From: an uncultured Ruminococcus sp.
GTDB taxonomy: Bacteria; Bacillota; Clostridia; Oscillospirales; CAG-272
NCBI GenBank assembly: GCA_964461155.1
Contig: CAYWTG010000001.1
Coordinates: 1 to 43,478, forward strand
Direction: 5' to 3'
Length of the DNA stretch: 43,478 nt
The notes under the pieces are model-generated. The model was not told where the DNA came from, ran no database searches, and saw only the letters and a program-made list of their open reading frames with translations. Every line of letters begins with the position of its first letter. Position 1 is the stretch's first letter. The translations under genes and the position numbers were made by a program. Positions 24,973 through 28,298 of the stretch are shown here, piece after piece.

Positions 24973-25010
24973 ATATTTATTTTGAAAACGTTCTCTTTCG
25001 CGGGGCGGGG
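24973..25010 (+). repeat. 38-bp direct repeat, left copy
   Basis: atatttattttgaaaacgttctctttcgcggggcgggg is identical to 26074-26111. Confidence 0.95.
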
Positions 25011-25046
25011 AATATCGGCTTCGTTTTGCCGATTTATCTCCTCTTT

Positions 25047-25262
25047 TTAAGAGTTTGAAAATGCGCCTCTCGAATGCAGATAAATATCGATATCGCTGTT
25101 GATGTACTGTGCGCCCGTGGTGTGGAGCACGTCGTAAAATTCGCGGAGGTAGTCGAAAACCTCGTATTTCTCGAAAAGCTCGGCCACCTGCCGCCCCGTC
25201 AGGGCTCGGTGCGTTTTGTAGCTTTCCAAGCAGAATACCGTGAACTTTGTTTCGGCACTCAT
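25047..25262 (-). CDS. DUF3791-like small protein
   Basis: MSAETKFTVFCLESYKTHRALTGRQVAELFEKYEVFDYLREFYDVLHTTGAQYINSDIDIYL. An AAGGAG RBS lies 6 nt before the ATG at 25262. Confidence 0.75.
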   Translation of the reverse strand: MSAETKFTVFCLESYKTHRALTGRQVAELFEKYEVFDYLREFYDVLHTTGAQYINSDIDIYLHSRGAFSNS

Positions 25263-25272
25263 AACTTTCTCC

Positions 25273-25509
25273 TTATACATCGGGAAAATGTATCGTCCCG
25301 TGTTTCCATTCCTGTTCGAGAAGAGAATAAAGCATCGGCGTGCTGTATTGCCAGAGCTTTGTTTCTTCGTTTTCGAGAGAGGAATAAAGCTTTGACGAGT
25401 ACAGAAGCTTTATTCCCTCATTTTCCGAAACGCCGCGTTTCGCCACGATCATGCTTATGACATCCGCGCTGATGATCGGGAGCATTGCGTTGAACTGTTC
25501 TTTTCCCAT
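25273..25509 (-). CDS. DUF3791-like small protein (second, divergent copy)
   Basis: 78 aa and helical, with the ...SSKLYSSLENEETKLWQYSTPMLYSLLEQE pattern. A GAGGTG RBS is present and the gap to the upstream gene's stop is 1 nt. Confidence 0.65.
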   Translation of the reverse strand: MGKEQFNAMLPIISADVISMIVAKRGVSENEGIKLLYSSKLYSSLENEETKLWQYSTPMLYSLLEQEWKHGTIHFPDV

Positions 25510-25510
25510 A

Positions 25511-25996
25511 TCACTTCACCTCTCTGTATTCGGCGAAGCGCAGGTGCGACAGTGCTTTTTTCGTGTGGAAAGTCCACTGATCGTGAAGCACCTCGGTCTT
25601 CAGCCTTTTTACCGTTTCTTCCGCGTCATACACGCCCGTCTCGAAAAAACGGATCGACTGATAAACATTGTCATCGGCTACCGGACCGATATGCATATCC
25701 GCAGTATTGTCAAACACTATGCCGCGTCGATTGTCGACGACGAACATAAGCCATTCAAGGTCTGCCGATTCAAACTTTTTTATGTTTATGCTCTCTTTTG
25801 CGCTCTCATAGTCAAATTCATAAGTTGACACATAGCCGACCGTTTTGTCCTCGCGACGCATTTTGATTTTTGCCCAACGCTCTGCCTGCTCATAGGAAGT
25901 CGTGGTGTAGAATCCGATTCCGAAATCGAGAAAGTTTTCACCCGCGCGTATTTTCGGAGCTTCAACCAAAACCGTACTGCCGTGATAGATAATCAT
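25511..25996 (-). CDS. DUF3990-like protein with an ADP-ribosyltransferase-like H-Y-E motif pattern
   Basis: MIIYHGS (H5), FGIGFYTTT (Y30), VSTYEFDY (E60). GGAGGA lies 6 nt before the ATG at 25996. Confidence 0.75.
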   Translation of the reverse strand: MIIYHGSTVLVEAPKIRAGENFLDFGIGFYTTTSYEQAERWAKIKMRREDKTVGYVSTYEFDYESAKESINIKKFESADLEWLMFVVDNRRGIVFDNTADMHIGPVADDNVYQSIRFFETGVYDAEETVKRLKTEVLHDQWTFHTKKALSHLRFAEYREVK

Positions 25997-26032
25997 CAAA
26001 GTTCCTCCGATTTATTTTTGTCTTCCGTACAT

Positions 26033-26061
26033 ATTATACCACACATCGAGCTCGGCTCCAA
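26033..26061 (-). promoter_or_regulatory. Cassette-internal promoter for the DUF3990/DUF3791 operon
   Basis: Minus strand reads TTGGAG, 17 nt, then TGGTATAAT (extended -10). It lies inside the unique region between the 38-bp repeats. Confidence 0.55.
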
Positions 26062-26073
26062 GAGTTCCTCACG

Positions 26074-26111
26074 ATATTTATTTTGAAAACGTTCTCTTTC
26101 GCGGGGCGGGG
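26074..26111 (+). repeat. 38-bp direct repeat, right copy
   Basis: Identical to 24973-25010. The offset between copies is 1101 bp. Confidence 0.95.
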
Positions 26112-26144
26112 GAATTTGCCTTGCGAGAATATTTCGTCCATGTC

Positions 26145-27461: not shown

Positions 27462-27521
27462 GAATAACAAAATAACGCGATTGTCCGAGATGAATTTTAA
27501 GTTTGTCTCGGACAAAACGCA

Positions 27522-27741
27522 AAATAAAAGCCAAAGGCTGCCGCCCCGAGGGGTGACAGCCTTTGGCTTTTGAGAAAAGAAAGAAATGAAGAAGAATACC
27601 CAAAATTTATACGTACTACCGCAAGCGGCTCTTTCGTGAGGCTTACGGCTACGAGAAAATCAAATAAACGGAAAGCACCGAGCGAAACGAGTTTTTAACT
27701 CGATATCGCAGTTCACAGTTCATCAAATGTTTGATGCATCT
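27522..27741 (-). ncRNA. Candidate small RNA, unit B (about 220 nt; family not recognised)
   Basis: The orphan promoter at 27748-27776 leads into a region with no plausible ORF. Next come a CU-rich tract UAUUCUUCUUCAUUUCUUUCUUUUCUC and the terminator at 27527-27570. Confidence 0.4.
27527..27570. terminator. Bidirectional intrinsic terminator
   Basis: aaagccaaaggctg...cagcctttggcttt 14-bp stem. TTTT follows on the plus strand and TTTTATTTT on the minus strand. Confidence 0.85.
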
Positions 27742-27747
27742 GCATAT

Positions 27748-27776
27748 ATAATATCACGTATTTTGCGATATGTCAA
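27748..27776 (-). promoter_or_regulatory. Orphan promoter of unit B
   Basis: Minus strand reads TTGACA (27776-27771), 17 nt, TATTAT (27753-27748). Confidence 0.6.
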
Positions 27777-27850
27777 TAGGAATTTTCGTGTTTTTTTTGA
27801 ATATTTTTCCTCAACACGCGAAGAAAATAAGTTTTTCGGTTACGCGGACG

Positions 27851-28069
27851 AAAAAGACGACGGCCGCCATCCGCGAGGGATGACGGCCTGCCGCCTTGAA
27901 AAGAAAAATGAAGAAAAAACTCCGGTCCGATACCGAAAAGATGCCAATGTAAACAGGCGCGGAAAAAAGGCATCGGACGTGGTTAGCAAATTGAAAACAT
28001 TTTAAAGAACGAAAATTAAGTGTCGCACACTCCGCAAGTTGGTTTTGCACCGAAGCTTTGGAAATTTGC
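27851..28069 (-). ncRNA. Candidate small RNA, unit A (about 220 nt; family not recognised)
   Basis: The orphan promoter at 28076-28104 leads into a region with no plausible ORF. Next come a CU-rich tract UUUUUUCUUCAUUUUUCUUUUC and the hairpin ggcggcaggccgtcatccc...ggatggcggccgtcgtc followed by TTTTT. Confidence 0.4.
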
Positions 28070-28075
28070 ACCTAT

Positions 28076-28104
28076 ATAATACCACTTGCCGCACAATATG
28101 TCAA
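28076..28104 (-). promoter_or_regulatory. Orphan promoter of unit A
   Basis: Minus strand reads TTGACA (28104-28099), 17 nt, TATTAT (28081-28076). Confidence 0.6.
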
Positions 28105-28195
28105 GAGGATTTTGAAAAAAATTGTGTAATTTTTCTACGAAGGGCAAAAATATTAAAAAACTGCTCCCGCAAGAGCCGCGGCGAGCCTTAATCTA

Positions 28196-28224
28196 TTGAA
28201 AAAAACACGGGAATGTGGTATACT
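28196..28224 (+). promoter_or_regulatory. Promoter of the rbfA-nrnA-truB operon
   Basis: TTGAAA, 17 nt ending in TGG, then TATACT. Confidence 0.6.
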
Positions 28225-28298
28225 AAATATATGATGTAATATTGTACCCTCGCGAGATTTTTGCCGCGCGGGAATATCGAAAGGACAGAACGGATAAT

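Follow-up and report, generated by a model that had tools for sequence, protein, structure and literature searches.

Positions 1 to 43,478 of contig CAYWTG010000001.1, from an uncultured Ruminococcus sp., a stretch which is referred to at its full length as the window, carry on its minus strand three tightly packed genes, designated gene 1 (A), gene 2 (b) and gene 3 (c), within a short inserted cassette. Gene 1 specifies a DUF3990 protein with a predicted ADP-ribosyltransferase (ART) fold, while genes 2 and 3 specify two small helical proteins. We put at an even chance the reading that this locus is a self-contained, horizontally mobile conflict module of the catalogued PDC-M13 type, in which an ART effector using nicotinamide adenine dinucleotide (NAD+) would be held by two partner proteins and would act in addiction and/or abortive infection. 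The features of the locus are as follows:

25014 to 26073, minus strand: inserted cassette of ~1,060 nt, comprising a promoter, three genes and a 3' hairpin, without a recombinase gene
25511 to 25996, minus strand: gene 1 (A), 161-aa DUF3990 protein with an MIIYHGS start and a predicted PARP-like ART fold
25273 to 25509, minus strand: gene 2 (b), 78-aa all-helical partner from an unnamed family without a Pfam model
25047 to 25262, minus strand: gene 3 (c), 71-aa helical partner of the DUF3791 family
26033 to 26061, minus strand: module promoter as read from the sequence, with a -35 element TTGGAG (26061-26056), a 17-nt spacer and an extended -10 element TGgTATAAT (26041-26033)
25014 to 25033, minus strand: 3' stem-loop AUCGGC-N8-GCCGAU at the cassette end, without a U-run after it
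24973 to 25013: left target copy, ATATTTATTTTGAAAACGTTCTCTTTCGCGGGGCGGGGAAT, a direct repeat with 26074-26122
26074 to 26115: right target copy, the second copy of the duplicated target

The coordinates of the open reading frames (ORFs) bear out the packed arrangement given in a preliminary description of this DNA, with gaps of 1 nt between genes 1 and 2 and 10 nt between genes 2 and 3, and the Shine-Dalgarno-like sequences GGAGG, AGAGGTG and AAGGAG are located 6-9 nt 5' of the starts of genes 1, 2 and 3, respectively, in keeping with the ribosome-binding site that had been assigned to each gene.

All three proteins match PDC-M13 models of PADLOC-DB (gene 1 with an expect value, E, of 6e-55; gene 2 with PDLC04439, E 1.5e-27; gene 3 with PDLC04445, E 1.2e-29), gene 1 also matching the PADLOC models PDC-M10A and PDC-M42A, and the matches to these hidden Markov models together with the gene spacing place the three families adjacent and co-directional, with the same composition as PDC-M13. 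Judged by these matches, the window locus is already covered by a catalogued family and the pairing is not new. The A, B and C labels of PADLOC PDC-M13 follow gene position and not family, so that the three families are mixed under them. The PDC set consists of 145 untested candidates that were nominated for the occurrence of such cassettes inside BREX, DISARM and type I restriction-modification systems (bioRxiv 10.1101/2024.01.29.577857); PDC-M13 gave 3,324 matches in metagenome-assembled genomes (MAGs) from the rumen (PMC13356809), and a study in which eight candidates were tested did not include it (PMC12881386). Few candidate defence loci are as frequent as PDC-M13 in gut and rumen genomes. 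A full-text literature search for DUF3990, DUF3791 or PDC-M13 found no published experimental or functional work, which agrees with the earlier statement that no function had been shown for the DUF3990/DUF3791 pairing.

Fold and pocket residues of the gene 1 protein

The assignment of gene 1 to DUF3990 in the preliminary description was corroborated by a full-length Pfam match (PF13151, E 3e-48, 163.8 bits as against a gathering cutoff of 32.2) that spans residues 1-154 of 161, while NCBIfam returned zero matches and the PHROGs a single chance-level match (E 0.31). Sequence and profile searches against PDB sequences likewise produced nothing meaningful for this protein, and fold comparison alone was effective. 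An AlphaFold2 model of gene 1 built on 105 diverse homologues had a predicted local distance difference test score (pLDDT) of 95.1 and a predicted template-modelling score of 0.88, and in a Foldseek comparison with the PDB ranks 1-8 were taken by the catalytic domains of PARP1, PARP2 and PARP4 (E 7e-4 to 3e-2, probability 0.90-1.00, template-modelling (TM) score ~0.45 normalised to the query), followed by Arr-2 at rank 9, cholera toxin A, PARP14 and the PARP domain of RCD1. Among viral models one DUF3990 homologue was matched (TM 0.79), followed by ART-PolyVal domains. The split beta-sheet ART fold that had been proposed for this protein, and for which a comparison of a structure model with known ART folds had been suggested, therefore holds for the predicted structure, as a confident model matches PARP catalytic domains first. 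DUF3990 has already been placed in the Pfam ART clan (PMC7955679) and the fold claim is thus not new. Since the Pfam match begins at residue 1, leaving no place for an N-terminal trafficking or delivery domain of the kind found in polymorphic toxins of the Rhs or contact-dependent inhibition (CDI) type, the protein would be expected to stay intracellular.

The preliminary description had read an H5-Y30-E60 triad into the sequence of gene 1, and two of these three residues stood up to conservation analysis across the same 105 homologues, which are 33-66% identical to the window protein. H5 is conserved in 98% and Y30 in 100% of them, along with G6 (96%) and S7 (84%), and position 41 is aromatic (W 61%, F 34%). 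H5 is situated on model strand 2-7 and Y30 on strand 29-32, which corresponds to the ART-type arrangement of a histidine in H-G-S/T on beta-1 and a tyrosine on beta-2. When aligned by hhalign with the ART domain of PARP1, a weak alignment, H5 pairs with H862, Y30 with Y896 and W41 with Y907. Residues H5, G6, S7, Y30 and W41 are predicted to line the NAD pocket. E60, on the other hand, was rejected as the catalytic residue: it is a glutamate in just 63 of the 105 homologues (60%), the remainder having D, S, T or another residue, and it is positioned on strand 54-61, directly after the helix that follows Y30 and off the catalytic strand. In the same weak PARP1 alignment E60 falls at the "MYEL" strand after the helix and not at E988.

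No conserved catalytic glutamate of the kind that the ART superfamily carries on beta-5 was found in the DUF3990 homologues. The remaining model strands are 72-74, 101-105, 139-143 and 152-160, and by analogy with the strand order of PARP1 the hairpin formed by 139-143 and 152-160 may be taken as beta-5 and beta-6. On this assignment the more likely occupant of the catalytic-strand position is Q140, which is 99% conserved and lies within "L-x-D-Q-W-x-F", opposite "Y-N-E-Y-I-V-Y". Alternatively, D100, at the start of strand 101-105, could act as third catalytic residue in an Arr-like H-Y-D arrangement. Further invariant or near-invariant residues of gene 1 are D24, F29, R90, D100, G104, D109 and W82.

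Two other activities are conceivable for a protein with this fold and this pocket. The gene 1 product could be a NAD+ glycohydrolase and not a transferase, such that the released enzyme would deplete NAD(P)+ in the manner of the RES toxins or Tne5 while b and c would occlude the NAD pocket. The glutamate that is lost here is the one on which transfer to an acceptor classically depends, and ART-fold toxins that purely hydrolyse NAD+ have been documented, with an immunity protein modelled as a plug of the cleft (PMC13285283); however, Tne5, an ART-fold Rhs NADase, relies on other residues (K1392 and E1482) and bears no sign of DUF3990 membership, and the invariant polar residues D24, R90, D100 and D109 of gene 1 suggest a specific acceptor site, on which balance we judge pure hydrolysis to be unlikely. 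The paper describing Tne5 was also considered as a possible study of DUF3990 and was set aside, as the residues differ and the paper draws no link to DUF3990. The second activity is the modification of a small molecule or antibiotic, as performed by the 16-kDa rifampin transferase Arr, in which case the module would be a resistance or detoxification cassette. While Arr is of similar size, appears among the structural matches at rank 9 and uses an H-Y-D triad (PMC8120803) in which the invariant D100 could serve, and while the module is both mobile and plasmid-borne, the match to Arr is short (66 columns, E 0.08), Arr works without partners as compared to the two obligatory partners here, DUF3990 is found as the toxin domain of Rhs proteins (PMC4524185) and the cassettes that define PDC-M13 are embedded in restriction and BREX systems, all of which makes an Arr-like role very improbable.

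The two small partners and their linkage to gene 1

Genes 2 and 3 had both been described as DUF3791 proteins, a designation that applies to just one of them. Gene 3 matches DUF3791 (PF12668) at E 9e-21 with 74.1 bits against a gathering cutoff of 25, and gave no NCBIfam match and nothing significant in the PHROGs, whereas gene 2 has no match in Pfam (E<=1), NCBIfam or PHROG. BLASTP returned no alignment between the two proteins, and clean profiles of the b and c families showed no cross-match, with an hhalign probability of 1%. An apparent merger of the two profiles, which would have made b and c one family, was dismissed, as it was due to naturally fused b=c ORFs (where = marks a fusion) in the seed of gene 3. 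Gene 2 thus appears to represent a family separate from DUF3791, although a very distant relationship remains conceivable; its 136 homologues are nearly all 78 aa in length and share the motif Y.S.LY..LE.E.TK.W. In a paired alignment of b and c the sole invariant residues are E91 and H125 of the concatenated sequence, which correspond to E13 and H47 of gene 3.

An AlphaFold model of genes 2 and 3 joined end to end, built with fused homologues from a protein search, yielded two all-helical halves (pLDDT 82.5) of similar layout, each consisting of one long helix followed by three shorter ones. This model had no significant neighbour in the PDB, the best being ferritin-like bundles (E 0.5, TM 0.2). 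When genes 2 and 3 were compared with PDB sequences, a match to the N-terminal helix of RBBP4 (E 4e-4) was judged spurious, being produced by a duplicated fusion chain, and the other matches were chance helix matches only. No macrodomain or other Pfam enzyme domain was found in either protein.

Homologues of gene 1 are numerous, with more than 800 close relatives and 3,132 cluster representatives at E<=1e-3. To survey its neighbourhood 87 sources were scored with our own profiles for A, b and c, namely the window and 86 related loci, of which 80 were obtained by scanning species-representative genomes with a 15-sequence alignment as query. These 80 genome loci span Bacillota, Bacteroidota, Spirochaetota, Lentisphaerota, Planctomycetota, Bifidobacterium, Elusimicrobia and others, and are mostly MAGs of gut, rumen or termite origin. 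In every one of the 87 sources with enough contig to see them, A, b and c lie side by side on the same strand. The order A>b>c is found in 56 sources, b=c>A in 13, c>A>b in nine and b>c>A in four, besides a small number of tandem doubles; all orders observed are cyclic permutations of a single one, and A>c>b was never seen. Tandem or part-duplicated modules, arranged as A>b>c>A>b>c and A>b>c>b>c, are present at L057:5039-6973, L039:5992-7626 and L053:1668-3644, and duplicates such as that of L057 offer a plausible route by which the permuted orders could have arisen. In a single locus, L039, an additional b>c pair stands without A, and A without b and c was encountered in no interior locus.

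Apparent fusions of all neighbouring pairs are on record. Bacteroidales contain many b=c proteins, three DUF3990 cluster representatives (P0122, P0164 and P0211) are A=b and a fourth (P0263) is c=A, while a fifth, P0256 (302 aa), is a triple c=A=b fusion. L053:1871-2602 is also listed among the apparent single-chain fusions. Constant linkage, the restriction to cyclic orders and the fusion of every adjacent pair together argue strongly for one physical complex of A, b and c.

Such a complex could also be an obligate three-subunit enzyme, in which b and c would activate A and complete its glutamate-less site, for example with Glu13 or His47 of c acting in trans, against a cellular or an invader's target. 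It is the missing catalytic glutamate and the covalent fusions that keep this explanation alive. At the predicted catalytic-strand position 99% of homologues have Q140, b and c combined have no invariant residues other than a glutamate and a histidine in c, and fusions of all adjacent pairs, together with a triple fusion, are typical for subunits of one enzyme. PARP1 and HPF1 form a composite active site in which HPF1 supplies a glutamate to PARP1. This pair and the fused, autoinhibited toxins such as CapRel set a precedent for an accessory protein that gates or completes a site and for covalent fusions, by analogy only and not by homology. A report on CmdTAC further describes an ART that is not highly toxic alone and becomes toxic when co-produced with a partner (PMC11445053). 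The extra b>c pair of L039, however, fits orphan antidotes better than orphan activators, and the DUF3990 toxins at the C-termini of Rhs proteins are delivered alone and act without such partners (PMC4524185), and for these reasons we regard an obligate holoenzyme as rather unlikely.

In 15 of the 80 genome loci, and also in L001-L006, the start of A is overlapped by a fourth gene, d (~98 aa; e.g. L001:5708-6004 and L008:5708-6004), which in Pfam gave just a weak, sub-threshold match to DUF6788. The window copy has no d and keeps the same promoter core directly 5' of gene 1. The closest relatives of this copy (63-80% identity) usually carry the overlapping gene, from which it might be argued that the window copy is a decaying or inert passenger, a non-functional remnant that lacks d. 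This appears highly improbable when set against three intact, full-length ORFs, the retention of the promoter and of all invariant family residues, the presence of an identical module in independent samples, and the lack of d in 65 of the 80 genome loci likewise.

Insertion site and genomic setting of the cassette

Comparison with sister strains established that the cassette is an exact insertion, present in some and absent from others. At the empty sites L087, L088, L089 and L093, all from other samples, the MinD/ParA-like gene lies 258-275 nt from an identical or near-identical oxidoreductase gene, and the empty allele carries a single copy of ATATTTATTTTGAAAACGTTC(G/T)CTTTCGCGGGGCGGGGAAT (L087:3800-3930, L088:1340-1470 and L093:2790-2930). 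In the window, the cassette is bracketed exactly by a 41-nt target duplication, the 38-nt exact core of which is present exactly twice in the window as compared to zero expected occurrences, and a position that is G in the empty alleles is T in both copies. Two contigs of 1,131 nt from further samples, L090 and L091, consist of the module alone, identical to that of the window, and end in the repeat, as would be expected of a de Bruijn graph that breaks at duplicated sequence. No copy of the 41-nt flanking repeat was found in JGI metagenome contigs.

Direct repeats also flank the module at eight other loci (L012, L028, L062, L020, L044, L047, L054 and L057), where their length ranges from 17 nt through ~125 nt in L028 (5609-5733 and 6950-7074) to ~220 nt in L012 (1538-1759 and 2804-3026). 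A common att site was considered and rejected, since the repeats of other genomes are unrelated to one another in sequence and the 41-nt repeat itself occurs only twice in the window. Insertion could have proceeded by Campbell-type recombination of an excised circle or by a process that generates a duplication. The target repeat also includes a near-palindrome, GAAAACGTTCTC, at window positions 24984-24995, which lies where the MinD-like operon and the oxidoreductase gene diverge, in their promoter region, and may be a regulator binding site.

The inserted DNA has a guanine-plus-cytosine (GC) content of 0.469, lower than the 0.549 of the window and the 0.56-0.58 of the flanking genes, which confirms the earlier remark that the unit is more AT-rich than its surroundings. 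The extended -10 promoter that had been assigned to the module can be read in the sequence, and its core, ATGTGTGGTATAAT, is also kept 5' of the homologous operon of Firmicutes bacterium CAG:145 (L008); it was not called by a consensus promoter scan because its -35 element matches at only 3/6 positions. A perfect 8-bp palindrome, CGAGCTCG, is contained in the spacer between -35 and -10 (window 26045-26052, minus strand), none being seen in L008, and could be an operator for autoregulation of the module. At the other end of the cassette, the RNA fold of 24990-25060 on the minus strand has a free energy of -15.5 kcal/mol (z = -3.1), and the stem-loop located there may act as a weak terminator or form an end structure. 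A scan of the window against Rfam returned zero RNA families.

On one side of the window module are the MinD/ParA-like gene and mgsA, on the other a divergent GFO/IDH/MocA oxidoreductase gene, and farther out are rbfA, a DHH phosphoesterase gene and truB. The interval from the oxidoreductase gene to rbfA (window 27462-28241) comprises 780 nt of gene-poor, AT-rich sequence with two terminator-like GC hairpins and two minus-strand promoter-like sequences of the CCTCTTGACATA...TATAAT type, similar to the promoter of the MinD-like gene at 24951-24922.

The module is accessory and mobile in other organisms also. A is carried by 87 plasmid records (42 from Bacteroides, 15 from Clostridium and the rest from others), 50 of which are non-mobilisable, and in C. 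botulinum pCLI the module is immediately beside the replication (rep) gene; only eight phage records contain the module. The preliminary description had proposed an examination of neighbourhoods near defence islands. When sampled at the immediate neighbours of the 80 genome loci, some copies do adjoin defence genes, with a type I HsdR next to the module in L039 and a Cas RAMP gene in L080, but most neighbours are heterogeneous: 138 flanking ORFs represent 149 Pfam families, with type I restriction-modification, Fic, YafQ and Mrr in a few loci each.

A candidate conflict module and its likeness to known systems

In the conflict module that we propose, gene 1 would be a minimal ART-fold enzyme of the PARP/diphtheria-toxin lineage that binds NAD+ through H5-G6-S7, Y30 and W41. 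The presence of Q140 in place of the catalytic glutamate would point to mono-ADP-ribosylation by substrate- or partner-assisted chemistry, or to NAD+ hydrolysis. The b and c proteins would bind each other as well as the enzyme in a stable complex that keeps the latter inactive or controlled, and if the module were lost, or if phage infection or another trigger intervened, the activity would be released towards a presumed target and the cell arrested, with plasmid or cassette addiction and/or abortive infection as the outcome. The preliminary description had likewise pictured a conflict module with small partners, and that prediction is consistent with the near-constant co-occurrence of the three genes, their presence or absence between strains, their occurrence on plasmids and the role of DUF3990 in Rhs toxins (PMC4524185). 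For a type II toxin-antitoxin system in particular the indications are indirect, namely the constant linkage, the fusions, the b>c pair of L039 that stands without A, and carriage by plasmids.

A number of observations weigh against the conflict module. We infer both toxicity and neutralisation, here and for every other member of the family. As the canonical catalytic glutamate is missing from the sequence, classical ART activity of gene 1 is not assured, and the placement of Q140 over D100 on the catalytic strand is deduced from strand order only. In searches of the PDB neither b nor c has a sequence or structural relative among known antitoxins or immunity proteins, and the stable A=b, c=A and c=A=b fusions would be unusual for a labile type II antitoxin and fit an obligate holoenzyme equally well. 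The window copy is among housekeeping genes and not in a defence island, the neighbours across the 80 genomes are heterogeneous with few defence genes, and gene d, carried by the closest relatives, is missing from the window copy.

The elements added by the present analysis are the linkage of three families, the cyclic gene orders, the fusions, the pair of empty and occupied sites with its 41-nt duplication, and the location of relatives on 87 plasmids and next to type I restriction or CRISPR genes. A more far-reaching proposal, which we put forward as speculative and improbable on present indications, is that the trio is a new type of three-subunit NAD+-dependent effector, in which an ART with glutamine in place of glutamate would be gated or completed by a heterodimer of two undescribed helical folds, with the glutamate and histidine of DUF3791 in the active site and with a non-protein or otherwise unusual target, and which would travel as a recombinase-less cassette of ~1 kb with target duplications of 17 to ~220 nt. 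An ART-based conflict module as such would not surprise a specialist, while the tripartite architecture, the glutamate-less site and the insertion without a recombinase are potentially informative. If the enzyme does work without a catalytic glutamate and does need its partners, the range of ART chemistry in bacterial conflict would be widened. The residues that would be informative in this regard are H5, Y30, Q140, D100 and R90 of gene 1 and E13 and H47 of the DUF3791 protein, to the exclusion of E60, and the occupied and empty sites within one species, together with small Clostridium plasmids that have the module beside rep, constitute ready natural systems.

PDC-M13 comprises the same three genes as the window module, and while PDC-M13 was predicted from embedded cassettes, the window copy stands solo among housekeeping genes. 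DUF3990 is otherwise known as the C-terminal toxin domain of Rhs effectors of the type VI secretion system in Serratia and Enterobacter (PMC4524185, PMC10763514, PMC12165300). Serratia marcescens Rhs5 and Enterobacter bugandensis RhsA share this Pfam domain with gene 1 and are followed by a small downstream protective or immunity gene (PMC4524185, PMC10763514); these effectors are, however, secreted with PAAR/Rhs delivery domains, whereas the window protein is without such domains and has two partners. As in DarTG, where it is the toxin, an ART-fold protein comes first in a mobile operon, and for DarTG both toxin-antitoxin and phage-defence activity are known (PMC9967889, PMC8120803). In contrast to b and c, which have no macrodomain, DarG is a hydrolase with a macrodomain and takes the modification off again, and DarT has the catalytic glutamate E160.

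The CmdTAC system, a tripartite defence system of an mRNA ADP-ribosyltransferase, an antitoxin and a chaperone, is similar in that its operon has three genes, the ART effector being encoded first and accompanied by two smaller accessory proteins (PMC11618068), and in a second report the behaviour of its effector depends on the partners (PMC11445053). It differs in having a SecB-like chaperone, which neither gene 2 nor gene 3, at 71-78 aa and all-helical, matched in Pfam, NCBIfam or PDB sequences. ParST and RES-Xre (MbcTA) differ from the window module in their toxin motifs, R-Y-N and R-E-S, and in their Xre/DUF2384 antitoxins, which were not detected here by Pfam, but resemble it in that a protein of the ART clan is paired with a small helical protein, which in those systems blocks the NAD+ site (PMC8120803).

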